Source: a virus
Taxonomy: Duplodnaviria > Heunggongvirae > Uroviricota > Caudoviricetes
Strand: one strand, 5' to 3'
DNA: 64,000 nt
Virus record (IMG/VR): IMGVR_UViG_3300027836_000006
Under the pieces are notes generated by a model that saw only the letters and a list, made by a program, of their open reading frames with translations, was not told the DNA's origin and made no database searches. The position numbers and the translations under genes were made by a program. Shown one piece after another: positions 4,886 to 40,550 of this stretch. Positions within the stretch are counted from its first letter, which is position 1. The number at the start of each line of letters is the position of its first letter.

Positions 4886-5641
4886 ATGAGAATTTGTATT
4901 ATTGGGCACCCCCGTTCGCGAAGTACTTACCTACTTAATGTAATTGCGGACTATTTCAAAATACCTGAAATCCCACACCACCAAATTAAAAATGTGTATA
5001 ACGTACTCCCAGTGGAGTGTTATCACTCATCGCAATGGGAACCAATTTGGGATCCTAACTTCCCTACATCTATTAAAGAAGAATTTTTAATCAAGTTCAA
5101 CGAGTTCCAGTCTAAGATAAAAAATAAAGCTAGTTTTATTATCAAAGTTCACCCATCGCAGTTAGCTTACTTTCCAGCAAGCGGTCAGCTAATAGATTTT
5201 GACTTGTTTGGTTTTCAACAATACAATCAAATTTACTTTACTGTACGTAAGAATCACATTGATGCAATTTGTAGTTACTTCATTGCTAACAAAACAGACA
5301 AGTGGCACTACGGCCGTGGCGACAAACCTATGGCTATTGAAGCGCAACCTATGTCTAATAATATTGCTGTTATGATTTATATTTGGCACGACTTGATAAG
5401 TCAAGAGCTAAAGAAGTACCTAGACAATAAAAATATAGCATGGAGTGAAATCTATTACGAAGACATGACTGATTACGTAAAAGACCATTATCCAACAGGA
5501 TTAGCTAACACTATAGAAACTGGGTACGACTATAAACAACTTATAACCAACTACGACGAGTTGACTGACACATATAATATACTTAAAGATAAAGTTACAG
5601 CATTGTTTTACGAACATAATCCGGATTTGAAGAATGTTTAA
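4886..5641 (+). CDS. sulfotransferase (PAPS-dependent, Sulfotransfer_3-like)
   Basis: N-terminal 5'-PSB loop IIGHPRSRSTYLLNVI, compared with the consensus IVGmPRSGTTLL. Confidence 0.6.
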   Translation: MRICIIGHPRSRSTYLLNVIADYFKIPEIPHHQIKNVYNVLPVECYHSSQWEPIWDPNFPTSIKEEFLIKFNEFQSKIKNKASFIIKVHPSQLAYFPASGQLIDFDLFGFQQYNQIYFTVRKNHIDAICSYFIANKTDKWHYGRGDKPMAIEAQPMSNNIAVMIYIWHDLISQELKKYLDNKNIAWSEIYYEDMTDYVKDHYPTGLANTIETGYDYKQLITNYDELTDTYNILKDKVTALFYEHNPDLKNV

Positions 5642-6731
5642 ATTTAGCGAGCTAAAACAATTACACTTAGAAATAACAAACAACTGCCAAGCCAGTTGTC
5701 CTATGTGTGCGAGGAATGTTCGCGGGGGTGTTGATAATCCGCTGTTGACTATTAACAACTGGACCTTAGATACATTTAAAATAATCGTATCTCCAGAAGT
5801 ACTATCACAAATCGATGTGTTTTATTTTTGCGGTAACTTTGGAGATCCAATACTAAACAATGAATTGATAGACATGTGCGAGTATGCTGTTAGCGTTGAT
5901 CCAACAGTTACTATTAACATACACACAAATGGCGGAGCCCGTAATGTCGATTGGTGGATAAAGTTAGCAAAGACATTGCCAGTAAATCATCGTGTAGTGT
6001 TTGCCATTGACGGCTTAGAAGATACTCATTCTATCTATCGCATCGGTACATCATTTAATAAAGTAATAGAAAATGCTCGAGCATTTATCAATGCCGGTGG
6101 TAAAGCAGAGTGGGCATTTATAAGATTTAAGCACAACGAACATCAAGTAAATGATGTAAGACAGATGGCAACTGAGCTAGGGTTTGAAAATTTTACTATG
6201 AAAGATAGCTCACGCTTCTTTGATAGCGAGAAATATGCTGTATTAAACAAACAAGGATCTGTAATTTATAATTTAGAGCCTTCGACGTACAGCGAAATTA
6301 AATTTATTAGTACAGACATTATTAAACAACATAAGAAATTAGTAGCCGAAAGTGAAATACAATGTCAGGCATTGGATTTAAAAGAAGTATATATAGATGC
6401 GTTTGGTAGGATTTTTCCGTGTTGTTGGATTGCTAGTACACCATATACTTCCTTCGACGAGGACATTAGATTTGCTCCAGTGCGTTATCAAATGCTAGAC
6501 GAATACAATGAACTGATTAACGCATTAGGCGGGATAGATAAATTAGATGCTACTCAGCATACAATTAAAGATATTGTTGATTCGCCGGAGTATCAATCAG
6601 TGTGGTACAAGTTTTGGGCTGAGAAGAAATTAACTGTATGTGCTAGAGCTTGTGGTGTTCTTAAGACGCCAGTATTTTCAAAACCTTCAGAGCAATATAC
6701 TAGTAAAGAAATACTTCACCAGCGTCCGTAA
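5634..6731 (+). CDS. radical SAM enzyme, family A (paralog of 19678..20757)
   Basis: CxxxCxxC motif in ITNNCQASCPMC. FCGNFGDP is GGEP-like. Shared block NARAFI(N/A)AGG...HNEHQV. C-terminal CC...C cluster. Confidence 0.7.
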   Translation: MFKFSELKQLHLEITNNCQASCPMCARNVRGGVDNPLLTINNWTLDTFKIIVSPEVLSQIDVFYFCGNFGDPILNNELIDMCEYAVSVDPTVTINIHTNGGARNVDWWIKLAKTLPVNHRVVFAIDGLEDTHSIYRIGTSFNKVIENARAFINAGGKAEWAFIRFKHNEHQVNDVRQMATELGFENFTMKDSSRFFDSEKYAVLNKQGSVIYNLEPSTYSEIKFISTDIIKQHKKLVAESEIQCQALDLKEVYIDAFGRIFPCCWIASTPYTSFDEDIRFAPVRYQMLDEYNELINALGGIDKLDATQHTIKDIVDSPEYQSVWYKFWAEKKLTVCARACGVLKTPVFSKPSEQYTSKEILHQRP

Positions 6732-9620: not shown

Positions 9621-9664
9621 AGAAATATTTATGTGCTACTATAACTATGGTAAATATTTCTATG
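9618..9664. promoter_or_regulatory. perfect 14-bp inverted repeat (19-nt spacer) spanning two divergent start codons; candidate operator
   Basis: catagaaatattta (9618-9631) is the exact reverse complement of taaatatttctatg (9651-9664). The left arm contains the CAT start of the minus gene and the right arm contains the ATG at 9662. Confidence 0.5.
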
Positions 9665-10519
9665 TTAAATACTCGCATTGCCACATCGTACACTACTGAA
9701 TGGTTACAAACAGATAGACCTAGTCCGTTGGACGACAATCAAATTGAGCAGTTAATACAAGATGTATTGTGTGGGAAGCTAGATAAGGATATTACTGATA
9801 ACGTTTATACTAGTTTTAAACAAGAGACAACGAATTGGATTTTTAACTCAAAATTAAATACCTTAACAGGGTTTGATAGTTTTAATCGTGTTGATATTAT
9901 AAACGGATGTACACAGTTTATAGATAATTTGTATATGCAAGGGCCTGTACAAGTATTGCGAGGCGATTACAGATACCATGAAAGATTAGAATTAGCGTAT
10001 GTAAAAGATGTGGGCTCGCTAATTCCAGACATTCCTTTAATTATAGCAATGCCGTTCCCTAGCATTGGTGCTCCACATCAGGATATGGAGGAGATTTTAC
10101 ATGAGTGTAAAATTAAAAACATTGCAGTACATATTGACGGTGCTTGGATTAGTTGTTGCCGTGACATTACTTTTGACTTTAGCCATGTGGCTATTAGATC
10201 CGTTGGCATCAGTCTTAGCAAAGGTCTTGGTCTCGGGTGGAACAGGATAGGATTACGTTGGACCAAAGATAGCAAGGCAGATTCGATTACAATAATGAAC
10301 GATTTCAAAATGAACAATCGTGCGCTGGCAATGATTGGATTGCATTTTATTCGTAACTTGCCAACGGACTACTTGTGGTTGACACACGGCGATAGATATT
10401 ATACAATATGTAAAGACTTCGGCTTGACTCCCACTAACAGTATATATTTGGCACTACAAAATGGACAGCCTGTTGGAGTCAGTCCACTGATAAGGTATTT
10501 GGAAAATGAATCAAGTTAG
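9647..10519 (+). CDS. PLP-dependent aminotransferase-fold protein (paralog of 8021..8938); the start may instead be the ATG at 9662
   Basis: SLSKGLGLGWNRIG and HIDGAW. The ATG at 9662 mirrors the divergent gene's start within the inverted repeat. Confidence 0.6.
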   Translation: MVNISMLNTRIATSYTTEWLQTDRPSPLDDNQIEQLIQDVLCGKLDKDITDNVYTSFKQETTNWIFNSKLNTLTGFDSFNRVDIINGCTQFIDNLYMQGPVQVLRGDYRYHERLELAYVKDVGSLIPDIPLIIAMPFPSIGAPHQDMEEILHECKIKNIAVHIDGAWISCCRDITFDFSHVAIRSVGISLSKGLGLGWNRIGLRWTKDSKADSITIMNDFKMNNRALAMIGLHFIRNLPTDYLWLTHGDRYYTICKDFGLTPTNSIYLALQNGQPVGVSPLIRYLENESS

Positions 10520-11225
10520 CATACCGTTTGATAAGACGTGGACAGATGTTGCTGTAAGTCTAAGCGGTGGCGCAGATAGTGCCTTACTAGCCTACATGGT
10601 GTGCGAGCTTGCTAAAGAACATAATGTCACAGTACACATTATTAATCATGTGCGTATGTGGAAAACACGCCCGTGGCAACAACATGATGCTGATCGAGTT
10701 TACAATTGGTTATTCCAGCGTTTCTATCATACAACATTTAGACGGCATACTAACTTCATTGCCCCAGACATAGAATACGGTAATATAGGACCCAATCTAA
10801 CTGATGAGTATGGCAAGAAGGTAAGTGGTGATAATATACAACAACGTGCCTATGCTGAATTTATTTGCCATAAACATAATGTAAGTGCTTATTTTAATGC
10901 AGTAACACGTAATCCTAGGCAAGCAATGTTTAACGGTATGCTTGAACGTGATTTAGAACCAACCGAAGAAAATAAACATTTAGAATACATGATTCATATG
11001 GGTCGTGTTGCCAGTCATCCTTTTCGATTCGTAGATAAATCGTGGGTACTAGCACAATATAAAAAATTAGAAATTATGGATTTGTTTGAGCTGACAAGAA
11101 GTTGTGAAGGCGAATTCAAAGAAATTAACTACGCAACATATACACCTGGTCAATACGTACCAGTATGCGGGGAATGTTTTTGGTGTAAAGAAAGAGATTG
11201 GGCTATAGCATGTCAAGACTCGTAA
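10506..11225 (+). CDS. PP-loop ATP pyrophosphatase, QueC-like
   Basis: SLSGGADSA matches the SGGxDS PP-loop. The C-terminal Cys cluster CGECFWC resembles the QueC zinc site. 239 aa. Confidence 0.6.
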   Translation: MNQVSIPFDKTWTDVAVSLSGGADSALLAYMVCELAKEHNVTVHIINHVRMWKTRPWQQHDADRVYNWLFQRFYHTTFRRHTNFIAPDIEYGNIGPNLTDEYGKKVSGDNIQQRAYAEFICHKHNVSAYFNAVTRNPRQAMFNGMLERDLEPTEENKHLEYMIHMGRVASHPFRFVDKSWVLAQYKKLEIMDLFELTRSCEGEFKEINYATYTPGQYVPVCGECFWCKERDWAIACQDS

Positions 11226-11839
11226 CGTTTGGATGTTCTTATACCTATGGCAAGGGATTAGAAGATTGCCAGGATTGGCCATTACTACATAAAAGTATGC
11301 ACAGTTCTAAGCCAAGTCAGTTAGGTTGGCCAAATCAACTAAGTGACAAGTTAGGTGTAGAGCTAGTGAACAAGTCTTACCCAGGATCAAGTAATTTAGA
11401 AATACTGTATGAGATACTACAATTTGATTTTAAACAAGATGATATAGTAGTTATAATGTGGTCTCACTACTTACGTGATATGCTGTTCACACGATTCTTC
11501 AAATGGATATTTTTAAGACGTAGGTTAGGTGCTTGGAAGAATACAGGTGTAGCAAAGAAATGGGTGGAGCAGATGAGTGAGCGAGATTACTCTATGCGTA
11601 CATGGATTTACCTACAACACGCTAGTCTATACTTAAACAGTAAAGGTATAAAATATATACACTACCCTGCGGCACCACACGAGTTACGTGAATACGAATT
11701 TCCAAGAATCCATGTAGACAATTTACACATGGATGGTATAGAATGGATTGACAATGCGTTAGATGGTAGTCATCCTGGACCGGCAACACATGCTAAATTA
11801 ACGGATAAGATTTTTAATATTTTAAATGAATCAAAGTAA
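11210..11839 (+). CDS. hypothetical protein, possibly an SGNH/GDSL-like hydrolase fold
   Basis: N-terminal TFGCSYTYG is GDS(L)-like but with Cys in place of Asp. Start moved to the ATG at 11210; the ORF track gives 11198. Confidence 0.35.
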   Translation: MSRLVTFGCSYTYGKGLEDCQDWPLLHKSMHSSKPSQLGWPNQLSDKLGVELVNKSYPGSSNLEILYEILQFDFKQDDIVVIMWSHYLRDMLFTRFFKWIFLRRRLGAWKNTGVAKKWVEQMSERDYSMRTWIYLQHASLYLNSKGIKYIHYPAAPHELREYEFPRIHVDNLHMDGIEWIDNALDGSHPGPATHAKLTDKIFNILNESK

Positions 11840-13073
11840 AACATTTTGTATGCATCCTTTTACAGGATTAGCAACTAGAGAAGACGGAGCAATTTGTGCT
11901 TGTTGTCGTAGCCACCCTGTTGGCAATATACAGTACCAGAGCTTAGAAGAGATTTGGAATAATAGTACAATGCGCCGCATACGGCGACAAGTGTTAAATG
12001 ACGAGCGTCCTAAAGAATGCGAACCTTGCTTTAGTTTAGAAGACCAGGGTGTTGAAAGTTTGCGTATGCGACATATAGCAGGCAAAATACCAGAAGCACG
12101 TATTAACTTGTATCCTAATACTCCATTACAAGAAGTAATGCCATTTGAGATTCCTACTATGGAACTTAAACTAAACAACTTGTGTAATCTAAAATGCCGG
12201 ATGTGCCATCCAATGGATAGTACTAGCTGGAATGACTGGAGTGAAGTTAAAGACTTTTACAAAGCAGAAGGCAACATCATGTATGCTATTGTGGAAGAAC
12301 ATAACTTAGAACAGAAGCCACACCTTGATAAGTTTCAAGACAATCCTGAATGGTGGGCTAGTTTAGAAAAACTACTTCCGTACTTTAGACGTGTAGAGTT
12401 TGCTGGCGGCGAACCTCTAATGGATCCACAGCACTATCGCATACTAGATATGCTTGCTCCTTACGGTGATCAAATTGAGATTAAGTACGCAACTAACTTA
12501 ACCACATTAGGTAAGAGTAATCGTACCATTTGGGAATATTGGCCTAAGTTTAAATCAGTAGCAGTCAATGTAAGCATTGACGGCATTTGGGCAAGTTATG
12601 ATTACATACGGGGTAACGGTAGCTTTATTGAAATCGTAAACAACATTAAACAGGTACAGACTATTACAAACATTAGTCGTATTGTTGGCGCGGTAACTGT
12701 ACAAGTTAGTAATGTGCTTATACTAGACAAGATGATAGAATATTTCTTAAATGATTTAGGAATTGTATTTCATACGCATCGTGTAGAATATCCTAAAGTA
12801 TTATCAGCACAAGTATTACCTGCTGAATTAAAACTATTGGCTATACAACGATTAGAAGCAGTAAAGTCCCGTATTCCAGAATTTAAGATGGTTAAAGAAC
12901 ATCCTGAGCTATATGGTTACACACTTGGGCAGATACAGGATAACATCAACTACTTGAGGGCAAGAGATCAAAGCGACAAGTGGACAGATTGTATAGAATT
13001 TAATCGACGTTTAGATAAAACTAGAGACCAAGACTTTGTACAAGTTACACCAGAATTTAAGGATTACGTATAA
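11826..13073 (+). CDS. radical SAM enzyme, family B, with an N-terminal Cys-rich extension
   Basis: CNLKCRMC (CxxxCxxC) and FAGGEPL. The N-terminus has FCMHPF...GAICACC...CEPC. Paralogs are at 15561 and 39183. Confidence 0.7.
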   Translation: MNQSKTFCMHPFTGLATREDGAICACCRSHPVGNIQYQSLEEIWNNSTMRRIRRQVLNDERPKECEPCFSLEDQGVESLRMRHIAGKIPEARINLYPNTPLQEVMPFEIPTMELKLNNLCNLKCRMCHPMDSTSWNDWSEVKDFYKAEGNIMYAIVEEHNLEQKPHLDKFQDNPEWWASLEKLLPYFRRVEFAGGEPLMDPQHYRILDMLAPYGDQIEIKYATNLTTLGKSNRTIWEYWPKFKSVAVNVSIDGIWASYDYIRGNGSFIEIVNNIKQVQTITNISRIVGAVTVQVSNVLILDKMIEYFLNDLGIVFHTHRVEYPKVLSAQVLPAELKLLAIQRLEAVKSRIPEFKMVKEHPELYGYTLGQIQDNINYLRARDQSDKWTDCIEFNRRLDKTRDQDFVQVTPEFKDYV

Positions 13074-13690
13074 TGGCAACAATGCATCTTACTACACCTC
13101 ATGCTGAGTTAACGTTTATTCACATAACTAAAACAGGCGGTACAAGTGTAACTCACTGGTTAGACGAACTGCCTAATATTACATCTTATAAAAAGTGGAA
13201 GCATCACGAAAGTTCTGAAATGCTAGTCCAGGACAATCACGTATCTCCTTTTATTTTTACAGTAGTACGAAATCCGTGGGATAGAGTTGTCAGCGGCTAT
13301 CATTACTTAACACAACGTAAAGGAATGTATTTTCCAAAGTCGCACGATTACTTTTGGGAAACTGTTGAGAAGTTAACAGGCAATACTGATTTATCATTTG
13401 ATGACTGGGTTAAGTATCTGCCTGAATTTAAAATGCATCCTAATGACTGGTCAAGTGCTGGCACACCACAGTCTGATTACATACGTCCTGGAATTGACCA
13501 CGTAGTTAAATTTGAAAGCATTGACAGCGACTTTGTAGTTGTACAAGAGCTATGTAATGACTTTCGCCCGTTGCCAAAAACTAACGAGTCGCAACGTGAT
13601 TTACATCACGGCTATTATTCCGATGCTAATAGAATGTTAGTTGCTAAGATGTTTGAAAAAGATATCGACTTGTGGAAGTACTCATTCTAA
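13073..13690 (+). CDS. sulfotransferase (Sulfotransfer_2-like)
   Basis: HITKTGGTS compared with IPKTGGTS. RNPWDRVVSGYHY compared with RdPveRlvSay. Confidence 0.55.
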   Translation: MATMHLTTPHAELTFIHITKTGGTSVTHWLDELPNITSYKKWKHHESSEMLVQDNHVSPFIFTVVRNPWDRVVSGYHYLTQRKGMYFPKSHDYFWETVEKLTGNTDLSFDDWVKYLPEFKMHPNDWSSAGTPQSDYIRPGIDHVVKFESIDSDFVVVQELCNDFRPLPKTNESQRDLHHGYYSDANRMLVAKMFEKDIDLWKYSF

Positions 13691-14580
13691 TGGAACACGT
13701 AACTAGCCGCTGGCCACATCAAGACAGTATTAAGATCGAATGGAATCTTGGTAAGCGTTGTAATTACGACTGTAGTTACTGCCCTAGTAGCATACATGAT
13801 AACTCTAGTCCACATACTGATATAGAAATTCTCAAAGCAACTGTGGACAAACTAATGACACTGGGCAAACCTATACGTTTAAGTTTTACAGGCGGAGAAC
13901 CTACAGTACATCCTAAGTTTCCAGAACTTATTAAGTATTGTAATCATGTTGGCATTAGTTGGATCAGTGTAACAACTAATGGAACATTACCTTACGAATT
14001 TTACGCTAGTCTAAATGTAGATCAATACGTCTTTAGTCTACATTTAGAATACAATTGGCAACGTGTTTACGATACTATGAGTAAAGTTGCCGACCGTACT
14101 AATTTTAGAATCGTAGCACAGATCATGTGCCATCATGATCATATGCCTGCGGCTTATACGTTATTTGCTAGATGCTTGACTGCTCATATTCCAGCTACAT
14201 TAAGACGAATACGTTGGACAGAAGGTGATCATGATTTGTTTGACGACATGCGGTATCACCCTGACGACTTAAACTGGATTAAGAAACAAGAAGCCACTGT
14301 TGAAGGAAATTGTGTTATAGATGGCAAGCAAATTATACATGCCAATGACGTCATTAAACTACATTTAAACAAGTTTAAAGATTGGTCTTGTAATGCCGGG
14401 ATTGAAAGTCTAATGATAAATTGGGATGGCGAAGTACATCGTGCTACTTGCCGTGTTGGCGGTAGCTTAGGTAACATATACTCAGGGGCACTTAGTATTA
14501 ACGTAGACCCTGTAATCTGTGATAGGAATTATTGTACGTGTGCCGCTGACATTCCTCTCACTAAGATTAAACTTGGTTAA
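13690..14580 (+). CDS. radical SAM enzyme, family C (SPASM/twitch-like C-terminus)
   Basis: CNYDCSYC, FTGGEP, and a C-terminal W.CNAG...C...C motif. Start placed at the ATG overlapping the upstream TAA (TAATG); the ORF track gives 13672. Confidence 0.7.
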   Translation: MEHVTSRWPHQDSIKIEWNLGKRCNYDCSYCPSSIHDNSSPHTDIEILKATVDKLMTLGKPIRLSFTGGEPTVHPKFPELIKYCNHVGISWISVTTNGTLPYEFYASLNVDQYVFSLHLEYNWQRVYDTMSKVADRTNFRIVAQIMCHHDHMPAAYTLFARCLTAHIPATLRRIRWTEGDHDLFDDMRYHPDDLNWIKKQEATVEGNCVIDGKQIIHANDVIKLHLNKFKDWSCNAGIESLMINWDGEVHRATCRVGGSLGNIYSGALSINVDPVICDRNYCTCAADIPLTKIKLG

Positions 14581-15564
14581 ATGTGTCTCAGGCATACACC
14601 AGCAAGCAGTATTAGGACATTTGGTTGACTTTAATGGCGGATTAAATTCTGTTGTAAAATTAGGACTTGTTATATTAAAGTAAGTGTCTAACCCAAATAG
14701 TTTAGCATTACAGGCTCCTGTAATGTTACCAGTCCAGTTCATATAAATTCTGTCTAAGCCAATAGCACAATCCCAGTCTTTAAAACTATTCCAACCACGA
14801 TTGAAGTACGCACCTGGAGATGCTCGCATAGTTGAGCCGTCTTCTAAAGTAGCAGTACTGTCAAAGAATCTAAGCTCGTCTTTAATCAAGTGTCTATTGC
14901 GCCAGAACCATAATAGGTTAGGCAAACGTTTTAAGTCACGTTTTAAATACTTTAACTGTTCTGGTGTGTAGCGAGGCACAGATGGATCGGCAGTATTATC
15001 AATAACTTCGGCAGTCATAATAAACCATCTGTTACGACTGTGCTTTTTCATTAGCTCGATGTCGCGTATTCCTTTGTCCCAATGATTAGGATCCATCAAT
15101 ACTTTAACAGTAGTCTTTGTGCCGCGTTCGTGTAATGCGTCGGCTACTGCTATAATGTGTGTTACATCACCTTGGGCAATATGATGTGTTAAATGTGCGT
15201 TGTCAATAAGATGAGCATTCTCTTCCCACCATCGTAAGGTTCTAGATCCATTCGATATCAAAGAAAAATATACGTTATTGTCTTGTTTTATTTTGGCAAT
15301 GAATTCTGCCAAGTGCCTCCATAAAGTCGGCTCTCCGCCAGCCATAGACAAATGTACTTTGTCCTTGCCTAACTTCTCTTTGTAAAAATTAATCAAATGT
15401 CGAAAATTTCCTACTACCAAATCTAAGTCATCGGAAAATTTATGTGTTCCTGCGTTGCTACCAGGAAAACAATATTCACATTTAAAATTACAATAGTTAC
15501 TAGGATCCCAACCTATCTCTAAAACGTTGGATGATTTGTTAGATACAATCTTAACTGGTTTCAT
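14482..15564 (-). CDS. radical SAM enzyme, family C
   Basis: CNFKCEYC, MAGGEP, and a C-terminal DWDCAIG...C...CWC motif. It overlaps the convergent paralog by 99 nt. Confidence 0.7.
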   Translation of the reverse strand: MKPVKIVSNKSSNVLEIGWDPSNYCNFKCEYCFPGSNAGTHKFSDDLDLVVGNFRHLINFYKEKLGKDKVHLSMAGGEPTLWRHLAEFIAKIKQDNNVYFSLISNGSRTLRWWEENAHLIDNAHLTHHIAQGDVTHIIAVADALHERGTKTTVKVLMDPNHWDKGIRDIELMKKHSRNRWFIMTAEVIDNTADPSVPRYTPEQLKYLKRDLKRLPNLLWFWRNRHLIKDELRFFDSTATLEDGSTMRASPGAYFNRGWNSFKDWDCAIGLDRIYMNWTGNITGACNAKLFGLDTYFNITSPNFTTEFNPPLKSTKCPNTACWCMPETHLTKFNLSERNVSGTRTIIPITDYRVYVNTKCP

Positions 15565-16982
15565 AGTAAATGGGCTAGCTCAGGAAATGTTTCTTTAAAG
15601 TCGGTGCCACGTTGTTTGTCCATAGTACTAATATATTCGCCAAAATCTGGCAACAAGTTAGTATGGTCTTCAGCGTCCATCCAATCTAATATACCCTCCC
15701 AACGCTTCCAACCGTATGGGTTAGTTACCCAGAACTCCCTGTCCTGCGTATAGTTAATCCACAACCAAGATTTAAGTTCTTCAAACAATTCACGTACATG
15801 TTGCTTGTCTTCTAGGGGGAGCACACGCAAACTTAACCAGGTAGGTATCCATAACAAGTGTACACCAATTAGGCCGCCACCCATTACTTGCCCACTGGCA
15901 TTTTTGTCAAAGTTAATCTTCTTAAAGCCTTGTTCAACCTTCCATTTAATAAATTCAGGAACGTGCTTAATGTTTAATATTTGTACAGCAAACGCAATAT
16001 TTGTTTGTATGTTGTCTGGAGCAGTATCTAGTATTTGTAAATTTTTAACAATAGTTTGCCATTCGCTTGGATAGCGTATGTAATGATTACGTTTACCCAT
16101 TCCATCTAAGCTAAACCCTACTTTGACTTTTTTGAATTGCTTCCATATATCTATAATAGCATCGTTAATTAACAAACCGTTTGTGTTATATCTTAATGTG
16201 ATATTGTTTGCGTAACCACGTTTAATAATTTCTTCTAAGAACATCTTATGCTCTTTAATTAATAAAGGCTCGCCACCGGCAAAGTATAATTGCTTAATGT
16301 TAGGAATCTGGTCAAATATTTCTTCCCAGAATTTTGGATTTTCATGCCAGTAATTATTAAAGTCGCTAGCAGTCCAATCCATTTGTTTTTTAATTAAAGG
16401 ACTTTGTATCAGTGGATAAATCTTTTTATGTTCAGGCACCCACATGCTAGAATCATGCGGGCTACACATGATACATTTTAAATTACATGTATGGCCTAAT
16501 CTTAGATCAAGGTACTGTAATTTGTAAGGTACAGATCCATCTTCTTCTGTTTCGCGAATAAGCTGTTCTATATCTATCTTTTCTTCTAAATGCCAAGTGC
16601 CGGTTTCCCAAATGCGCTTACTAGCAATACCTTCTTGCTCTTCTTTAAAACATTTAGTACATGACGCAGGAACTTCACCAGCTAACATAGTCTTACGTAC
16701 ACTGCGCATATAGTCATTATTAAATGCTTCTGTAGGCAGATCGTGGGCAAAATTAGCGGGTTTGCCATCTTCCATCTTAACAAGTCCAACAGTGTAGTCT
16801 CCACTATCAGCGCCGCTGGCATTAGCTACACAGCATATACGCATATCGCCGTTGGGCCGAGTTGCTAAGTGTATCCAAGGAAGTACACAAAAACTTTTGC
16901 TACCTGAGATACTTTCAATTTGTTTTTGCCAAGTACCTATTTGTGTTTCTTCTGGTTGTAACCAAAATACCTTTTGTGTCAT
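15561..16982 (-). CDS. radical SAM enzyme, family B
   Basis: CNLKCIMC and FAGGEPLL. N-terminal FCVLPWIHL...RICC...CTKC extension. Confidence 0.7.
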   Translation of the reverse strand: MTQKVFWLQPEETQIGTWQKQIESISGSKSFCVLPWIHLATRPNGDMRICCVANASGADSGDYTVGLVKMEDGKPANFAHDLPTEAFNNDYMRSVRKTMLAGEVPASCTKCFKEEQEGIASKRIWETGTWHLEEKIDIEQLIRETEEDGSVPYKLQYLDLRLGHTCNLKCIMCSPHDSSMWVPEHKKIYPLIQSPLIKKQMDWTASDFNNYWHENPKFWEEIFDQIPNIKQLYFAGGEPLLIKEHKMFLEEIIKRGYANNITLRYNTNGLLINDAIIDIWKQFKKVKVGFSLDGMGKRNHYIRYPSEWQTIVKNLQILDTAPDNIQTNIAFAVQILNIKHVPEFIKWKVEQGFKKINFDKNASGQVMGGGLIGVHLLWIPTWLSLRVLPLEDKQHVRELFEELKSWLWINYTQDREFWVTNPYGWKRWEGILDWMDAEDHTNLLPDFGEYISTMDKQRGTDFKETFPELAHLL

Positions 16983-17623
16983 AGTTGTTTCTTAATGTTG
17001 TCTATTAGTTGTTGGTCATCTGTAGGGATCCACGATAACACTTCGTCAATATTTTCTACCGCTTGCCAGCTAGTAGTTGGACCTAGCTCCATCAACGCTT
17101 CTGTGTTAGTCCAATCCCAGTTGTTGATTAATTTTCCGGCTCCTGACCAATCGCTGATCAAATCATCAAAATCTATTCTTATAACTCTTCCAAAATCAAA
17201 AGTATCTGCTTGCTCGTATACTGCTTTTTCCCAGCACTTATAATTCCAATAAGCTAACATAAACTGTTCTTTGTTAAATGCTAGATTTTTAATTACATAG
17301 TCTTTACCAGGATGTGATTTATTAGTGGTATTGTAGGAACCATTGCTCAATAGCCAAGCGGCAAAGTCCTTTCGGGATACTAGCAACAAACACCACTCGC
17401 TATGATCCTTGAGTTCTTCTTGTAGTTTCTTGACCTTAGTAGCATTAAAGAATGTAAACACACTATGGCTAGCATCATTAAACTGTTGCCATTCGTGTCT
17501 TTCGTAGATTCCTCTATCAATGCCTAAGGCAGTTGGAGAGTCCGCTTTAAGACTATTAAAAATACAATTGAACGTACTAGTACTAGCCGTTCTTCCAAGG
17601 GTAAACAAAATAAACTTATTCAT
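16979..17623 (-). CDS. sulfotransferase-like protein
   Basis: N-terminal FTLGRTASTSTF is PSB-loop-like. About 214 aa. It heads the minus-strand run sulfotransferase, family-B radical SAM, family-C radical SAM. Confidence 0.45.
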   Translation of the reverse strand: MNKFILFTLGRTASTSTFNCIFNSLKADSPTALGIDRGIYERHEWQQFNDASHSVFTFFNATKVKKLQEELKDHSEWCLLLVSRKDFAAWLLSNGSYNTTNKSHPGKDYVIKNLAFNKEQFMLAYWNYKCWEKAVYEQADTFDFGRVIRIDFDDLISDWSGAGKLINNWDWTNTEALMELGPTTSWQAVENIDEVLSWIPTDDQQLIDNIKKQL

Positions 17624-17662
17624 ATAATTAATTAGCCTTTAAACTGCACACTAAATATTTTT

Positions 17663-18178
17663 ATGACTATAAAATACTTGGGCAACTATCCAAATTGGGT
17701 GAATCCACATCATCTCAAAATCATTTTGGAAAGTGAAGGCGATAAACGTACTGCATATAAAACTGAGAAAGAGATAGAGAAACAAGAACAAGTATCTATA
17801 TGGTCGTCACTAGGGCATGAGCTTAAAGGCGCAGAATGGTTTATGTATTACTACGGGCACTTAGGTATGTCTGCTGTGACTGACTTACAAATACCAATAG
17901 ATATAGACGGGCCGTTTAACTGGTGGTACTCTAAAATAAATCCTGGATCAGTATTCCCATTACACGTAGATACGTTTGATGTAACTAGCAACAAGACACG
18001 CAGACTTTGGATCCCTATGCAAGATTATCAGCCTGGCCACATCTTTATATATGAAGGTAAAATGTTGGATGATTATCGTGCTGGAGATGTTTACGAGTTT
18101 GAAAATCCTAAGGCATGGCACGGTGCTGCCAACATTGGATTTGAACCAAAGATTAGTTTACAATTAGTAATTCGCTAA
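17663..18178 (+). CDS. hypothetical protein, cupin-like (LHVDT...WHGAAN)
   Basis: HxD...H spacing typical of a 2-His-1-carboxylate oxygenase. Confidence 0.35.
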   Translation: MTIKYLGNYPNWVNPHHLKIILESEGDKRTAYKTEKEIEKQEQVSIWSSLGHELKGAEWFMYYYGHLGMSAVTDLQIPIDIDGPFNWWYSKINPGSVFPLHVDTFDVTSNKTRRLWIPMQDYQPGHIFIYEGKMLDDYRAGDVYEFENPKAWHGAANIGFEPKISLQLVIR

Positions 18179-18943: not shown

Positions 18944-18986
18944 AATAAAGGCTAATTAAGTAATACTAGTAGTTATCAGAAATCAT

Positions 18987-19694
18987 ATGACAAATTTAAA
19001 AAATTGGAACCATTATTACAACTTAGAAGGCACTGAGCAAGTTCGTGCCAATTTGGTATATACTCCGTATGTTAGTCCAGACAAGAAAACATTTTGTATG
19101 AGCTTTAACCGTGAAGAAGGATACCACATTTATGTACATGAGAATTTTAAATGGACAGACGAACTGCTATCAGACCGTTTTAACAGAGAACTGCTATTCT
19201 ATGCTCGAGCATCCAAAGTTGTGCCAACATTAGATCTAGTTGACGTAGATACAGCAAACAGACGAATATTTTTAAAATGGCACGGTGATGATTTTTATAT
19301 GCAAGGCTTAACAGCCAATGGCTACGATAACGTACTACCTAATTGGCAAGAGCAATGGACTAATCTTATTACTACTATGTGGGACACTAACATTTTGAAA
19401 TGTAGTTTACATCCAAATAGTTGGGTTGCAGTTGACGGTGTTCTAACGCCATTCAACTGGTTCTTTTGCTTTGACAAAGCTGAGACTGGAATTACCATAC
19501 GAAGTTTGTTATTACAAATAAGCGACAGCCGACAGGATAAACTAATAGAAGTGCTGAACAGCGCAGGCTTAGATATCGATAAACCATACGCAAGTGTTGA
19601 TTTACAAAAAGTTGCGTTAGAGAGTTTTAAAAGCAATTACCCAGAAGAATTAATCAACAACCTTATAAAGAAATATAATGACCTTCTATCATAA
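18987..19694 (+). CDS. hypothetical protein (235 aa)
   Basis: ORF overlaps the next gene by 17 nt (19678-19694); no motif recognised. Confidence 0.45.
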   Translation: MTNLKNWNHYYNLEGTEQVRANLVYTPYVSPDKKTFCMSFNREEGYHIYVHENFKWTDELLSDRFNRELLFYARASKVVPTLDLVDVDTANRRIFLKWHGDDFYMQGLTANGYDNVLPNWQEQWTNLITTMWDTNILKCSLHPNSWVAVDGVLTPFNWFFCFDKAETGITIRSLLLQISDSRQDKLIEVLNSAGLDIDKPYASVDLQKVALESFKSNYPEELINNLIKKYNDLLS

Positions 19695-20757
19695 AATTAG
19701 AGAAATCGAAGTAGAGAATAGCGGTATATGTAATGCCGCTTGCCCGCAGTGTATTCGTGAAATTAAACCAGGAGATCATTCTTGGTTTGAGGAAGGCTAC
19801 TTACAAGCAGATGTGTTTGATAGAATACCATCTACTGTTTACGAGAATTTAGAAATATTACGATTTGCTGGATCTATAGGCGATCCGTGTGCCGCTCCAA
19901 ACTTTATTGAGGTAGTCAAAAAAGTCCGTGCCAAAGGTAAATTTAAAATTAACGTAAGCACAAACGGCGGTATGAAAAGTCCTGATTGGTGGACTAGGCT
20001 TGCCCACGCACTAGGGCCTGATGACGAAGTACAATTTGCGTTAGACGGATTAGAAGATACTAACAACATATATCGTGTAAATGTAAGTTGGAAGAAGGCG
20101 ATGGAAAATGCTCGAGCATTTATTGCCGCAGGCGGTACTGCGTTATGGCAATTTATTGTGTTTCAACATAACGAACATCAAGTTGAAGATGGACGTACAC
20201 TTGCTGAGCAAATGGGATTTAAGAAATTCATAGTTAAACCTAGTCATAGATTTTTAATGGATGACATCATGGGTGTACAGCGTTACGGCACTGGCGGGGT
20301 ACTTATACAACCCCCAGGACAGAAAGAGATGATACACAAAGTAATGTTCCAACCTAAAGTTGTTAAAGTCGATGATTTATTAAAGAATTCGAACAATAGT
20401 TGTATTAAGTGTTATGCTAAAGAGCATCAAGATGTTTATATAGATTTTACAGGTCATGTGTTTCCTTGTTGTTTTATGGCTTCAAACTTTTGGGCACAGA
20501 AACACGTATCAGTTCCAGATGGTTGGAAACAGTTATGGAACGATGCCGGCGGTGATTTAATAGACTTACACAAACAAGACTGGGATACTATTGTACAAGG
20601 CGAATTTTTTAACCAAGTTGAGAAACGATGGGACAAGGATTACAACAATGGTCGCTTGTTAATATGTTCTGGAGTGTGTTCTTCCTTTGAAGGAAGATTT
20701 AATGACCCTGCCGAATTTGGCAAGTTAGCTACTACGGAATTTAAACAGTCCCAATAA
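19678..20757 (+). CDS. radical SAM enzyme, family A
   Basis: GICNAACPQC and FAGSIGDP. Shared NARAFIAAGG...HNEHQV block. C-terminal CCF...C...C. Confidence 0.7.
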   Translation: MTFYHKIREIEVENSGICNAACPQCIREIKPGDHSWFEEGYLQADVFDRIPSTVYENLEILRFAGSIGDPCAAPNFIEVVKKVRAKGKFKINVSTNGGMKSPDWWTRLAHALGPDDEVQFALDGLEDTNNIYRVNVSWKKAMENARAFIAAGGTALWQFIVFQHNEHQVEDGRTLAEQMGFKKFIVKPSHRFLMDDIMGVQRYGTGGVLIQPPGQKEMIHKVMFQPKVVKVDDLLKNSNNSCIKCYAKEHQDVYIDFTGHVFPCCFMASNFWAQKHVSVPDGWKQLWNDAGGDLIDLHKQDWDTIVQGEFFNQVEKRWDKDYNNGRLLICSGVCSSFEGRFNDPAEFGKLATTEFKQSQ

Positions 20758-21334
20758 TCATATAGCGGGTGTAAAGTGGCAATTCCAATTCACCAGCCCA
20801 CTTTACAGTACCGAGATTACATTGTTGTTTAAACTCATCTAAACTGTTGGCAATTCTTATATGTTCAGGTATGTTATAGTTGTTACTTTGTAATACAAAT
20901 AATGTGTTATGCGGCATGCCACTTAACCACAAGTCGTATTGGTCCTGTGTAATATGTTCACAGCTAGTGTTTATAACTACATCAGCATCACTACGGATAG
21001 CACACATATCAGCAGTAACAGCACGAAACTTGCCGTATATCTCCTCTGCTTTATTCATCATATTAGCAATAGGCTCACATGCCGGATCAATGTCTACACT
21101 GCGAATACTAGTAACTGGCACATCGCTTTGGAACAGCATACTAGCAAGTACACCATTCCAGCCGCCGTGTATGTCCACCGTAACAAACTTATTGACATGT
21201 TTGCGTAATTGTTTACACAACCAATCTTTGCTTTTCATCTGCCCTGCCCAGAAACAATCTAATGTTCGCATTGGGTCAGGACTTTGCCTTACGGCTTGCA
21301 TCCAATAGTGAAAGTGATCTAAATTAATATTCAA
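20741..21334 (-). CDS. SAM-dependent methyltransferase-like protein
   Basis: Class-I methyltransferase motif order: VDIHGGWNG (motif I), SVDIDP (acidic post-I), ADVVINT (motif II). Confidence 0.45.
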   Translation of the reverse strand: MNINLDHFHYWMQAVRQSPDPMRTLDCFWAGQMKSKDWLCKQLRKHVNKFVTVDIHGGWNGVLASMLFQSDVPVTSIRSVDIDPACEPIANMMNKAEEIYGKFRAVTADMCAIRSDADVVINTSCEHITQDQYDLWLSGMPHNTLFVLQSNNYNIPEHIRIANSLDEFKQQCNLGTVKWAGELELPLYTRYMIIGTV

Positions 21335-21531: not shown

Positions 21532-22391
21532 TATTTCAAACCTAGTTCCTTGCGGATTTTTGTAGCAGAGATAGAGTGTGTAGCGTCATCAAATGTTTCT
21601 TGTTCGATTTTATAACCTACATCTCGACCATAGGTAATGTTTACAATGTTGGGTACAACTTGTATTTCATACTGTCCTTGGAATAGCGGATCTAAGTCAC
21701 GTTTAATATAACTCTTAACTTGATCTATAGCAAACGGGTTGCTTCCTTGCCAGCCTTGGCAATCACGTATTTGAATAACTACTTGACCTGTTTTGGCAAT
21801 AGAACGTTCAAATAATTTACGATGGCCTTCATGCCAAGGTTGCCACCTACCTAACATTTGTACCGTCTCTTTTTGCCAATCAAATGTAGGACGACGTTTA
21901 TTTTCTAAAATGTGCTGGCCCACAAACTCGACCCACTTTTCAGCATTTTGTTCGATTATCCTAAAATCATATTGCTCGGGTGGAACGAATGCTTTGTTAG
22001 TATCGTCAAAGCGGCCAGCGTCGATTGTGTCGATCCAGATAGTCCAGTCGGCTTTAAAGTTGTTACGCATTTCAACTAGCGGTGCTACAAAATCACAGAT
22101 AACAAAATCACCTGTACAGTTGATAGCAAAATCAAACATTCTGATACTTTGACGAATGCGCCCTTCACGGCTAAAATCCCAGTCGTTGAATCTTTTACGA
22201 ACATCATCGGCATTGAACCAATCCACTCCTACTTTCAACATGTCAGGGCCCGGGATGCCTTCATAATTTAACAACCTATTTGGATTTACTTTATATAAAT
22301 CCCCATTTTCTTCTATGTATTTTTTAAGTCGTTCAGCAAAATAGGTTTTGCCCGAACCAGGTAATCCCATAATTAAGATTCTTTTAGCCAT
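21531..22391 (-). CDS. PAPS-synthase-like fusion: N-terminal APS kinase-like P-loop domain plus C-terminal minimal HxxH sulfurylase/nucleotidyltransferase domain
   Basis: GLPGSGKTYFA Walker A. ADDVRKRF...DWDFSREGRIRQSIR compares with the CysC block LDGDNVRHGL...DLGFSDADRKENIRRV. C-terminal QPWHEGHRKL compares with the ATP-sulfurylase QTRNPMHRAHREL. The protein ends ...SATKIRKEL. Confidence 0.55.
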   Translation of the reverse strand: MAKRILIMGLPGSGKTYFAERLKKYIEENGDLYKVNPNRLLNYEGIPGPDMLKVGVDWFNADDVRKRFNDWDFSREGRIRQSIRMFDFAINCTGDFVICDFVAPLVEMRNNFKADWTIWIDTIDAGRFDDTNKAFVPPEQYDFRIIEQNAEKWVEFVGQHILENKRRPTFDWQKETVQMLGRWQPWHEGHRKLFERSIAKTGQVVIQIRDCQGWQGSNPFAIDQVKSYIKRDLDPLFQGQYEIQVVPNIVNITYGRDVGYKIEQETFDDATHSISATKIRKELGLK

Positions 22392-23362
22392 TTTATTTCC
22401 TTTGGTATCTTACTGTCAGCACTACTGACACATGTATTAGTTATACATTCTTGCGGGCTGTCAAATAATTTAAAGTTCGAAAGTGTACCTAATGGTTGGT
22501 CGTGACAACTATAACTACGTTTTACTTCCGTTCCTCTAATTATAACACTTTGGTATCCAGCGTTACAATTCCACCCACTAAACTTATTGAATCCAAATGC
22601 GTTAAATCGCTCGGCTTGATCAAATAAGTGTTCTGTTCCATCTGCTTCGTATAATGCTATTTGATAAAGTTCCTCACCATTAGCACGTTGCGGAAATCCT
22701 TCACGCATCTTGTGTATCATATCATCAGTATAACCCTCAACAACCGCACTCGCTGTCGGATCACTTTGAGGCTTTAAAGTAACGTTGATTCCACGGTTGT
22801 GAAAACGTTCCATGCGTTCATAGAGTTCGTAGAACTTTTCTGGCACCATAACTTGATTGATTGTAACGTGTACTAGCTCGTATTGTAATTGTAAACACTT
22901 GTCGCCGAACTCTTGTTCCTTGGCAAACTCATCGTGGAAGCTGGCCGTAATACTACGGCGTTGTAATAGTTCAGTATTCTTACACCAAGTGTTCCACCAT
23001 TTGCTTCCCGGTGACAAATTGGTAGTCATGTGTATACTTTGGTAGGTACTTTCCTTTTCGTCCAAATGTTTAACTAAGTCTGGCAATTGTTTATAAGCAG
23101 TAGGCTCACCTCCGCTGAACGACCAATGGAACTGGTTAAACCCATTAGCTCGTGCTTGACGCTTAATCTCGTCTACAGTAGATTTATACACTTCAAGCGG
23201 CTGGTGATCCAATTTGTCGCTACGGGCATATGGCCAACAATAGCTACAACTATAATTACAGAATCTACCCAAAATCCAACTGGTAGAAAATAATGGTTTG
23301 GCTAGCATTGTGCGTTGCCCAAACCGTACAATATTTTGGAAAGGAATGGTTGAAAAGCTCAT
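22373..23362 (-). CDS. radical SAM enzyme, family C
   Basis: CNYSCSYC, FSGGEP, and a C-terminal GWNCNAG...C...C motif. Confidence 0.7.
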   Translation of the reverse strand: MSFSTIPFQNIVRFGQRTMLAKPLFSTSWILGRFCNYSCSYCWPYARSDKLDHQPLEVYKSTVDEIKRQARANGFNQFHWSFSGGEPTAYKQLPDLVKHLDEKESTYQSIHMTTNLSPGSKWWNTWCKNTELLQRRSITASFHDEFAKEQEFGDKCLQLQYELVHVTINQVMVPEKFYELYERMERFHNRGINVTLKPQSDPTASAVVEGYTDDMIHKMREGFPQRANGEELYQIALYEADGTEHLFDQAERFNAFGFNKFSGWNCNAGYQSVIIRGTEVKRSYSCHDQPLGTLSNFKLFDSPQECITNTCVSSADSKIPKEIKWLKES

Positions 23363-33428: not shown

Positions 33429-33554
33429 ATGAACAAATTAAAGAACTTTCAGACAGGATTACAGCTTACCTAGCAATGGGTGGATTGTTTAATCCTGAAC
33501 TCGCCAATCATCTTGCAGTAAGAGATTTGTTGATAGAATGTAGAGAGGCACTGA

Positions 33555-37622: not shown

Positions 37623-37635
37623 AAAGGAGAATGAT

Positions 37636-39175: not shown

Positions 39176-39182
39176 GTACACG

Positions 39183-40550
39183 ATGACTGATAAAACAATA
39201 TGGCTCAAAGAAGCTAAAACGATATTAGATCGAACAGGGCCTGGGATGTGTCTAGCAAAGTGGCTCCAAGTCACTTTGCATTTACAAAACGGCCATACGC
39301 ATAGTTGCCATCATCCTAATACTCATAAGATTCCTTTAGAAGAAATACAAGAAGATCCAAGTGCGCTTCATAATACTAAGTTTAAAAAAGAACAACGTAA
39401 GATGATGATGACCGGCAGTAGGCCGGAAGAATGCCATTTTTGTTGGAACGTTGAAGACAATGCTCCTGTAGACGCAGAAGTATATAGTGATAGAATTTAC
39501 AAAAGCACTGATGATTGGGCAGGTAGGGCTCAATACTTTAATGTAATGTATGCTGGCTGGGAACAAAACATCAAACCGACTTACTTAGAAGTTAGTTTTA
39601 GTCATGCGTGTAATTTTAAATGCTCGTATTGTAGCCCTCATATTTCAAGTAAATGGATGGAAGAAATTGAAAAGTTTGGCGGATACCCAACTACCCTTCA
39701 ATATAATAATTTAGAGCACACTAAGCATCAAGACAAAATGCCAATTCCGGTTAAGGAATACAACCCATATGTTGAAGCATTCTGGAAGTGGTGGCCTGAC
39801 ATTTATAATACGTTGCATACTTTCCGTATTACAGGTGGCGAACCGTTAATGAGTAAAGATACTTTTAAAGTATTAGACTACATTATTGAAAATCCAAACC
39901 CTAAATTAGAACTTGCTATCAACAGTAATTGTGTATTGCCCGATAAACTATTTGATAAATTTATCGAAAAAATTAAAATAATTCAAGATAATAACTGTGT
40001 CAAAAAGTTTACACTGTTCACCAGTGCCGAAGCATACGGTGCTAAAGCAGAGTATATCAGACACGGTATGGATTACGATATATGGCTTGATAATTGTCAT
40101 AAATTTTTAGAAGCAGTACCTACAGCAAATTTTAGTATCATGTCAACATATAATGCTTTGTCAATTACATCTTACATGGAATTTTTAAAAGATGTATTGA
40201 TTATGAAATTGAAACATCATAATGCGGATCGTTCAATTAGTTTAGATATTCCATATTTGGATAACCCAAAATGGATGAGTGTTAGAATATTGCCAATGTC
40301 ATATAAAGAACAATTGATTAAACAAGTTAAATTTATGAGAGACAACCATTGTAGTGGGATTGGATTCCAGGGATGGGAAGCTGACAAATTAGATAGGATT
40401 CAATATTTGCTCGAAGAAGATAGAGAAAAAACTTATATGAAAGATTTTGCTTTGTTTTTTGATGAGCACGATAAGCGTAGAAATACAAACTTTTTGGCTA
40501 CATTTCCCGAAATGATTGAATTATACACCGAATGCAAGAACTTGACATAA
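39183..40550 (+). CDS. radical SAM enzyme, family B (third paralog)
   Basis: CNFKCSYC and ITGGEPLM. N-terminal MCLAKWLQVTLHL...SCHHP...CHFC extension. Confidence 0.7.
   Translation: MTDKTIWLKEAKTILDRTGPGMCLAKWLQVTLHLQNGHTHSCHHPNTHKIPLEEIQEDPSALHNTKFKKEQRKMMMTGSRPEECHFCWNVEDNAPVDAEVYSDRIYKSTDDWAGRAQYFNVMYAGWEQNIKPTYLEVSFSHACNFKCSYCSPHISSKWMEEIEKFGGYPTTLQYNNLEHTKHQDKMPIPVKEYNPYVEAFWKWWPDIYNTLHTFRITGGEPLMSKDTFKVLDYIIENPNPKLELAINSNCVLPDKLFDKFIEKIKIIQDNNCVKKFTLFTSAEAYGAKAEYIRHGMDYDIWLDNCHKFLEAVPTANFSIMSTYNALSITSYMEFLKDVLIMKLKHHNADRSISLDIPYLDNPKWMSVRILPMSYKEQLIKQVKFMRDNHCSGIGFQGWEADKLDRIQYLLEEDREKTYMKDFALFFDEHDKRRNTNFLATFPEMIELYTECKNLT

Follow-up and report, generated by a model that had tools for sequence, protein, structure and literature searches.

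The 64,000-nucleotide stretch of DNA analysed here (the window; IMG/VR record IMGVR_UViG_3300027836_000006, from a virus of the class Caudoviricetes) carries three genes for radical S-adenosylmethionine (SAM) enzymes in which a Cys-rich domain precedes the catalytic core. These open reading frames (ORFs), termed ORF1, ORF2 and ORF3, are the only three copies of their group (family B) found in the window by a six-frame scan with a hidden Markov model (HMM). They are divergent paralogs encoded by a phage, fall into two motif subtypes and belong to NF033640 (N_Twi_rSAM, twitch domain-containing radical SAM protein), an NCBIfam family from which nothing sets them apart. Their N-terminal extension is an ordinary twitch domain (a truncated SPASM domain) that has been relocated, and is neither a new type of cluster site nor a zinc ribbon. 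The genes and their cluster motifs are as follows.

11826..13073, + strand: ORF1, N_Twi_rSAM paralog of the P/CC subtype; 415 residues; NF033640 score 323.7 bits
11838..12050, + strand: ORF1 twitch domain, about residues 5–75, with C8, C26 and C65-x2-C68 (from the AlphaFold2 model and the BtrN alignment)
12183..12206, + strand: ORF1 radical-SAM cluster loop, C120-x3-C124-x2-C127 (invariant in alignments)
15561..16982, − strand: ORF2, N_Twi_rSAM paralog of the P/CC subtype; 473 residues; NF033640 score 409.5 bits
16629..16898, − strand: ORF2 twitch domain, about residues 29–118, with C32, C50(C51) and C108-x2-C111 (from the alignment)
16464..16487, − strand: ORF2 radical-SAM cluster loop, C166-x3-C170-x2-C173 (from Cys positions)
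39183..40550, + strand: ORF3, N_Twi_rSAM paralog of the K/CH subtype; 455 residues; NF033640 score 338.9 bits
39240..39467, + strand: ORF3 twitch domain, about residues 20–95, with C23, C42(H43) and C84-x2-C87 (from the alignment)
39609..39632, + strand: ORF3 radical-SAM cluster loop, C143-x3-C147-x2-C150 (from Cys positions)

ORF1, ORF2 and ORF3 are intact paralogs with pairwise identities of 22–29%. As an earlier sequence-only reading of this DNA had described, each has a Cys-rich N-terminal region ahead of the CxxxCxxC loop and a GGEP motif downstream of it, the latter in agreement with the alignment. The uniform extension of about 110 residues given in that reading is not found, as 119, 165 and 142 residues precede CxxxCxxC in ORF1, ORF2 and ORF3, respectively. 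Its two motifs, C-x-(L/H)-P-(W/F) and (I/S)-C-C, hold for ORF1 and ORF2 but not for ORF3, which has C-L-A-K-W and S-C-H. The pattern common to the three proteins is C-x12-18-G-x4-C ... C-x2-C, with a Gly five residues ahead of the second Cys. The ORF2 twitch domain has an insertion of about 20 residues after CC, and all eight Cys residues of ORF2 belong to the twitch motif or to CxxxCxxC. A gene-fusion or frameshift artefact as the source of the extension was rejected: the ORFs are continuous, an in-frame stop codon lies directly 5′ of the ORF1 ATG, and the architecture occurs in thousands of sequences.

All three proteins match NF033640 over its full length (profile positions 1–398; curated cutoff, 170 bits) and are almost certainly members of this family; the N-terminal four-Cys twitch motif, CxxxCxxC and GGEP are common to them and the family. 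Because the E-values range from 1e-96 to 1e-122, the four-Cys pattern is not a product of chance. The Pfam profile PF04055 matches ORF2 (47.6 bits) and ORF3 (40.6 bits) above its cutoff of 29.5 bits, and ORF1 (28.2 bits) slightly below it; the CxxxCxxC and GGE(P) motifs of this superfamily do not vary in the alignments. Identity of any of the eight radical-SAM genes in the window with viperin, QueE or MoaA was rejected, as the scores fall far under the curated cutoffs. The suggestion that family B is an uncharacterised subfamily stands only in part: the family is already catalogued, whereas a PDB search found no solved structure of it, and neither biochemistry nor an assigned reaction was found. 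Likewise, no literature was found on an N-terminal twitch or SPASM domain, on NF033640 or on circular permutation of SPASM. RadicalSAM.org lists some members of the SPASM/twitch megacluster in which Cys positions N-terminal to the barrel are conserved and which have no structures (PMC9477430). The observation itself is confirmed, and the three ORFs are new phage members of a named family that is biochemically and structurally uncharacterised.

The identity of the N-terminal domain is indicated by profile matches and by predicted structure. Pfam SPASM (PF13186) matches residues 8–68 of ORF1 (E = 1.3e-10; 41.8 bits; cutoff, 21.5 bits). A profile of the N-terminal region (A3; about 100 residues from 32 diverse sequences) has BtrN as its only significant match in the PDB (E = 1.9e-5; BtrN residues 168–237), and the four family Cys residues align one-to-one with Cys169, Cys187, Cys232 and Cys235 of BtrN. 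The auxiliary [4Fe–4S] cluster of BtrN is fully ligated by four Cys residues of its twitch domain (PMC9012708; PMC6231123). The seven-Cys SPASM signature is CX9-15GX4C-gap-CX2CX5CX3C-gap-C (PMC6231123), and the motif in ORF1–3 corresponds to the first half of it; the second half (CX2CX5CX3C ... C) is absent, with only CX2C present, and this absence identifies the domain as a twitch, which would bind one cluster, rather than a SPASM with two.

The AlphaFold2 (AF2) model of ORF1, built from 110 sequences, has a mean predicted local distance difference test (pLDDT) score of 96.5 and a predicted template modelling (pTM) score of 0.93. In this model, C8 is followed by a β-hairpin (residues 14–17 and 22–24), C26, a β strand (31–34), two helices (40–44 and 47–57) and C65-x2-C68, which starts the next helix; a linker of about 40 residues then leads to strand β1 (111–115) of the (β/α)6 core, and a helical, Cys-free region (333–407) lies at the C-terminus. 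This order fits the twitch layout, in which one Cys precedes the β-hairpin, one follows β2′ and two follow helix α2′ (PMC6231123), with an extra β3′ and α1′ as in SkfB (PMC6231123). When the full-length model is used in sequential structure searches, only the core of about 210 residues aligns, as expected for a permuted protein, and the N-terminal domain was therefore modelled and searched alone (pLDDT 90.7). Its best PDB neighbour is BtrN (probability 1.00; template modelling score 0.58 over 84 columns), and SkfB, anSME, SuiB and PqqE are weaker neighbours.

BtrN homology, the SPASM match and the AF2 topology together bear out the prediction that an auxiliary Fe–S-type domain stands N-terminal to the core. 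Auxiliary SPASM and twitch domains are indeed usually C-terminal according to reviews (PMC9012708; PMC6231123), a position not kept by ORF1, in which the twitch domain (about residues 5–75) precedes the core (β1 from residue 111). Twitch strand β1′ of SkfB packs beside core β1 (PMC6231123), so that attachment of a twitch domain at the N-terminus is sterically natural and packing at the same place is plausible.

The same evidence bears on whether the four Cys residues form a structural Zn(Cys)4 site, similar to a zinc ribbon, that serves fold stability or binding to protein or nucleic acid and involves no auxiliary Fe–S cluster. The C...C...CxxC spacing is able to bind zinc, the metal at this motif is a prediction from sequence and model, and profile A3 has one other, sub-threshold match in the PDB (2m47, an uncharacterised protein; E = 0.18), which spans the CxxC stretch only. 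However, the entire module of 70 residues is homologous to the [4Fe–4S] twitch of BtrN, with one-to-one ligands and a matching fold, Pfam SPASM matches ORF1, and the Gly five residues before the second Cys belongs to the SPASM/twitch signature CX9-15GX4C (PMC6231123). A zinc site is very improbable on these grounds, and the zinc domain that the sequence-only reading had offered as one option is not upheld. Binding of an Fe–S cluster by the N-terminal Cys residues is predicted with high confidence.

The Cys residues are conserved well beyond the window. When a profile of the three paralogs was searched against cluster representatives at 50% identity, 25,924 representatives were found at E ≤ 1e-3 and 4,780 at E ≤ 1e-30; for ORF2 the databases contain more than 5000 homologs, and the 120 best of these are 78–84% identical to it. 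In an alignment of 195 domains from the best 150 cluster representatives, C8, C26, C65 and C68 (ORF1 numbering) are always Cys where the residue is present, with the exception of one Asp at C65; about 170 domains carry the four without change, and G21 is conserved in 94%. Absence of the N-terminal Cys residues from homologs had been named beforehand as the outcome that would speak against the sequence-only reading; as the four are near-invariant, this was not what was found. The second position of CC is Cys in 96 of these domains, His in 58 and Tyr in 16, and it tracks perfectly with Pro or Lys at the fourth position of the motif. Two subtypes are seen, P/CC (C-x-x-P-W ... C-C; ORF1 and ORF2) and K/C[HY] (C-x-x-K-W ... 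C-H/Y; ORF3), and the segments that define them are located as follows.

11847–11906: subtype-defining motif segment of ORF1
16830–16889: subtype-defining motif segment of ORF2
39249–39311: subtype-defining motif segment of ORF3

Outside the cluster motifs, N45, R53, E72, S78, R80, S132, W135, N224, S250, Y260, R262, P323, D397, R400 and P409 are conserved family-wide, which suggests that the members share a mode of binding, possibly of an anionic group. In the family alignment, the helical C-terminal region is without a conserved Cys. Annotation has obscured the motif in ORF1 orthologs: in 66 of 120 database entries, the annotated start is the internal Met9 (MHPFTGL...) and Cys8 is lost, so that over half of them miss the first cluster ligand predicted here. 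At the ORF1 start (11826–11852), the upstream ATG directly follows an in-frame TAA, and the residues upstream of Met9 are conserved in viral loci.

Family members of at least 560 residues are mostly tandem fusions of two or three complete twitch–core modules. Duplication and truncation, as a route to the permuted order, would be expected to pass through a twitch–core–twitch–core fusion, and an origin of this order from such fusions is offered as speculation. A few long members (P0265, P0290, P0316 and P0326) instead carry an unexplained N-terminal extension of about 230 residues.

The proposed mechanism starts from a domain order in which the twitch precedes a partial (β/α)6 core, a circular-permutation-like rearrangement. 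The four N-terminal Cys residues would bind a fully ligated auxiliary [4Fe–4S] cluster, which would lie next to core strand β1, the packing site of canonical twitch hairpins. The CxxxCxxC cluster would cleave SAM, the 5′-deoxyadenosyl radical would take an H atom from the substrate, and the auxiliary cluster would accept an electron from the substrate radical, giving a net two-electron oxidation, that is, dehydrogenation or oxidative bond formation. For SuiB, oxidation of a substrate radical by the auxiliary cluster has been observed, and for BtrN and anSME it has been proposed (PMC9012708). By analogy with these enzymes, an oxidative, electron-sink role is predicted for the auxiliary cluster of ORF1–3 with about even chances.

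Alternatively, the auxiliary cluster might bind and position the substrate, as in MoaA, in a redox-neutral reaction such as a cyclisation or rearrangement. The core has MoaA among its closest structural matches, the conserved residues R53, R80, R262, D397 and R400 would suit an anionic substrate such as a nucleotide, and the conserved fourth Cys of SkfB shows that such a residue can sit off the cluster (PMC6231123). However, the four Cys residues are invariant, as in the fully ligated BtrN, whereas MoaA has three ligands only (PMC9012708), and the MoaA HMM gives 30–39 bits against a cutoff of 284. The invariant fourth Cys makes a substrate-binding role of this kind less likely, and it is considered improbable.

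Comparison with known enzymes places ORF1–3 beside the twitch prototype BtrN (the 2-deoxy-scyllo-inosamine dehydrogenase of butirosin; PDB 4M7S/4M7T), with which they share a homologous domain and, as expected in both, a single auxiliary cluster fully ligated by Cys. The twitch domain follows the core in BtrN but precedes it in ORF1–3, and the BtrN core is only distantly related to theirs and absent from the top core matches. ORF1–3 also differ in an extra helical C-terminal region of about 110 residues and in a context that is not aminoglycoside biosynthesis. [quoted passage not shown] The twitch enzymes SkfB, MoaA and BlsE differ from ORF1–3 in domain order, and the open iron site of MoaA contrasts with the four invariant Cys residues.

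The three genes belong to a cassette that spans positions 4886–23362 and 38345–40550 of the window and includes radical-SAM genes of two other families, A and C. The features of this cassette besides ORF1–3 are listed below; 2OG stands for 2-oxoglutarate, PLP for pyridoxal phosphate, APS for adenosine 5′-phosphosulfate and PAPS for its 3′-phosphorylated form.

4886–5641 and 16979–17623: two sulfotransferase-like proteins with PAPS-loop-like N-termini (GHPRSRST and LGRTASTS), by eye only
5634..6731, + strand: family A radical-SAM gene, with the C-terminal twitch-like motif C244 ... G258-x4-C263-C264 ... C336-x3-C340
7270–8037, 8931–9620, 17663–18178 and 18164–18943: HxD...H proteins with motifs of the 2OG/Fe(II) oxygenase or cupin type
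8021–8938 (− strand) and 9647–10519 (+ strand): divergent pair of PLP-enzyme-like paralogs, 42% identical; motifs HIDGAW and SLSKG; weak Aminotran_1_2 match
10506..11225, + strand: QueC/PP-loop ATPase-like gene; SGGADS motif and C-terminal C-x2-C-x2-C; TilS_N match at E = 7e-6
11198..11839, + strand: GDSL/SGNH-hydrolase-like gene; weak Pfam Lipase_GDSL match; its end overlaps the start of ORF1
13073..13690, + strand: accessory sulfotransferase (Sulfotransfer_2; Pfam E = 1.2e-9)
13672..14580, + strand: family C radical-SAM gene, with C-terminal W-x-C-N-A-G ... C-x4-C
14482..15564, − strand: family C radical-SAM paralog directly downstream of ORF2, with the family C motif
19678..20757, + strand: family A radical-SAM paralog, with the family A motif
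20741..21334, − strand: conserved partner of 197 residues, like a Rossmann SAM-methyltransferase by eye only (VDIHGGWNG ... VDIDP)
21531–22391: P-loop kinase fused to an HxGH nucleotidyltransferase-like region; phrog_10255; weak APS-kinase match
22373..23362, − strand: family C radical-SAM paralog, with the family C motif; 54% identical to a Bdellovibrionales gene

The C-terminal motifs that the sequence-only reading had given for families A (CC...C) and C (W-x-C-N-A-G) are roughly right; the fuller forms are C-x13-G-x4-C-C ... C-x3-C, with weak SPASM matches, and W-x-C-N-A-G ... C-x4-C, respectively. In an alignment with hhalign, the N-terminal profile of family B matches the C-terminal region of family A over 16 columns around G-x4-C-C at a probability of 11% and gives nothing meaningful with family C; descent of family B from family A or C is not claimed. 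The family C genes at 13672–14580 (+) and 14482–15564 (−) are convergent, and their 3′ ends overlap by 99 nucleotides (14482–14580).

Searches of Pfam, NCBIfam and PHROGs with the partner genes were mostly empty. Lipase_GDSL is matched by 6 of 10 members of the GDSL/SGNH family (best E = 1.8e-5), and in several viral loci an ORF1 ortholog likewise has a gene of this type directly upstream. QueC is matched by eight members of the family of the gene at 10506 (best E = 2e-5). The HxD...H proteins at 7270 and 18164 are paralogs (26% identity), and six homologs of the HxD...H proteins in related loci match Asp_Arg_Hydrox. The labels of the PLP-like and methyltransferase-like genes come from motifs recognised by eye and weak family-level matches and are weak themselves: phmmer searches of the PDB with these proteins gave nothing, and the partner of 197 residues has no HMM or PDB match. 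The two PLP-like paralogs, with their weak Aminotran_1_2 matches, and the four-Cys twitch domain would fit a dehydrogenase of the BtrN type, which oxidises an alcohol of an aminocyclitol or sugar to a ketone and is paired with an aminotransferase, although this is circumstantial. The genes at 13073–13690, 21531–22391, 4886–5641 and 16979–17623, each beside a radical-SAM gene, possibly form a sulfation module.

Recurrence of the cassette in phages was assessed in 80 IMG/VR viral loci picked by ORF1 orthologs, an ortholog being a protein with at least 45% identity within 10 kb. Orthologs are present for the family C gene at 13672 in 67 loci, for ORF2 in 63, for the family C gene at 22373 in 55, for the partner of 197 residues (20741) in 54 (and also in 14 bacterial loci), for the QueC-like gene at 10506 in 38 and for the family A gene at 5634 in 34. 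The sulfotransferase at 13073 is found, at any identity, in 3 loci and an ortholog of the kinase at 21531 in 1, and the proteins at 4886–5641 and 16979–17623 have no orthologs in the 80 loci.

Bacterial relatives were collected as 79 loci from species-representative genomes, the large majority of which belong to Bdellovibrionota; because the search patterns were derived from the three paralogs of the window, this taxonomic distribution is biased to window-like sequences. Two to seven N-twitch genes are present in 56 of 76 genomic loci, family-A-like genes in 26 and family-C-like genes in 26–38, and homologs of the PLP-like pair occur in 11 bacterial N-twitch loci. The genomic loci also contain genes for family 2 glycosyltransferases (GT2; 17 loci), B12-radical-SAM proteins (9) and Asp/Arg-hydroxylase-like proteins (7). 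A copy in Paenibacillus lies among genes for an acyl carrier protein (ACP), a ketosynthase, a ketoreductase, an AMP-ligase and a GT2 protein. Contigs of the Crocinitomicaceae metagenome-assembled genome JBDNIA01 carry genes 79–81% identical to ORF1 and ORF2, and either are mis-binned phage sequence or hint at the host.

The cassette is best described as a multi-step tailoring pathway made up of families A, B and C together with 2OG-oxygenase-, PLP-, QueC-, SGNH- and methyltransferase-like genes and accessory sulfotransferases. A glycan or small-molecule scaffold is the best guess for the substrate, held tentatively and at less than even chances, and a protein or a DNA or nucleobase target is possible.

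A peptide target would be expected if ORF1–3 were phage RiPP maturases whose N-terminal region resembled a RiPP recognition element (RRE). Many of the nearest core relatives in NCBIfam and the PDB are RiPP maturases (SkfB, CteB, SuiB, PapB and YhhB), the Asp/Arg-hydroxylase-like neighbours have counterparts in other systems that work on peptides or proteins, and a peptide or protein substrate is still possible for an enzyme without an RRE. However, the N-terminal region is homologous to a twitch domain, with no PqqD or RRE match in the Pfam scan or the PDB profile search, and scores for every RiPP-maturase equivalog are far under cutoff. A precursor-peptide gene is not evident, although no search aimed at one was made, and the cassette also has SGNH-, QueC- and PLP-like genes. 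RiPP maturation is therefore the least probable of the alternatives, with only a very slight chance of being correct.

The pathway might instead hypermodify phage DNA or a nucleobase precursor as protection against host restriction. T4-like phages commonly modify their own DNA, and the phage pathways for thymidine hypermodification and 7-deazaguanine combine kinases, PLP enzymes and radical-SAM enzymes. The cassette has a QueC-like PP-loop enzyme, PLP-like and methyltransferase-like genes, and a P-loop kinase to which a nucleotidyltransferase-like region is fused. However, a scan of the ORFs revealed no FolE, QueD, DpdA, hydroxymethylase or glycosylase-type gene, and eight radical-SAM genes exceed the use of such enzymes in known DNA-modification pathways. 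In bacteria the same radical-SAM families adjoin GT2 genes (the 17 loci above) and, in Paenibacillus, the ACP, ketosynthase, ketoreductase and AMP-ligase genes, and pairing with an SGNH hydrolase favours a carbohydrate or lipid that bears an ester. DNA modification is unlikely, and a tailoring pathway for another target is preferred.

A rIIB homolog, UvdE, an ATP-dependent DNA ligase, genes for the tail fibre and baseplate and an ORF of 3957 residues mark the window as part of a T4-like myovirus. Megablast of positions 1–25000 against GenBank phages gave no match, which points to an uncultured lineage, and the DNA ligase is at most 34% identical to that of any isolate. The same contig is present in an ENA metagenome, and metagenomes hold thousands of orthologs that are 78–89% identical, on contigs of up to 387 kb. 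The cassette is carried by this abundant uncultured aquatic T4-like lineage and by Bdellovibrionota. In GenBank phages, tblastn with ORF1 and ORF2 finds only RsoM2USA, K566/K567 and one marine single-virus contig, at 21–28% identity. Both K566 and RsoM2USA are cultured phages: Vibrio phage K566 carries a row of four N-twitch radical-SAM genes (161.5–168.3 kb), two of which are annotated only as hypothetical, and Ralstonia phage RsoM2USA has at least one N-twitch gene, its gp202 being annotated as hypothetical. Host-recognition genes lie around the cassette in the window, as listed here.

3754–4827: gene with an Mtd_N domain
41891–43345: tail-fibre-like gene
48660–60533: ORF of 3957 residues
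60533–61576: baseplate-wedge/tail-fibre connector gene

The T4-like Campylobacter phages CP220 and CPt10 carry 11–12 radical-SAM genes of unknown function (PMC2853527), and the host-recognition clusters of pelagimyophages carry radical-SAM cassettes (PMC7029224). Radical-SAM genes are grouped in a variable T4-like module in these phages as in the window, where the module lies among tail-fibre and host-recognition genes; however, tblastn with ORF1 and ORF2 gives no match in Campylobacter phages or pelagiphages. Other features of the window include a gene for a Bax1-I (BI-1/YccA-type) membrane protein at 37615–38331, which also occurs near the radical-SAM cluster on a related contig of 281 kb (L005 1075–1767), and a run of about nine short ORFs (46–85 residues, none reaching 100) arranged head-to-tail on the + strand at 32449–34198. 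No tRNA genes are present anywhere in the window.

Taken as a whole, the interpretation of ORF1–3 as NF033640 enzymes of the SPASM/twitch clade that have an N-terminal twitch with a single cluster and act in a conserved tailoring cassette is probably correct. Several points weigh against it. ORF1 alone is detected by Pfam SPASM, as ORF2 and ORF3 have no match at E ≤ 0.01, the identity of the metal cannot be fixed by computation, and the alternation of the second Cys of CC with His or Tyr between the subtypes hints at cluster environments specific to each. Radical-SAM enzymes are labile to oxygen, yet oxic waters appear to be the source of the phage lineage. For the cassette, most partners lie under curated thresholds or were identified by eye, and neither the sulfotransferase nor the kinase is conserved with it in the 80 viral loci.

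Whereas reviews describe auxiliary twitch and SPASM domains as C-terminal, the domain stands in front of the core across about 4800 clusters, and a very large family with this order indicates that the twitch module tolerates permutation. The cassette may represent an undescribed multi-radical-SAM pathway, shared by aquatic jumbo or T4-like phages and predatory Bdellovibrionota, that builds or remodels a molecule of the cell surface, or one associated with the virion, with a link to host recognition, by chemistry yet to be assigned to any radical-SAM enzyme, and its permuted enzymes may stem from tandem fusions; this broader proposal is tentative and somewhat more likely to be wrong than right. 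Up to eight radical-SAM genes are held together in a conserved cassette beside tail-fibre genes, and its product could reveal a phage modification that serves host recognition or evasion of defence.

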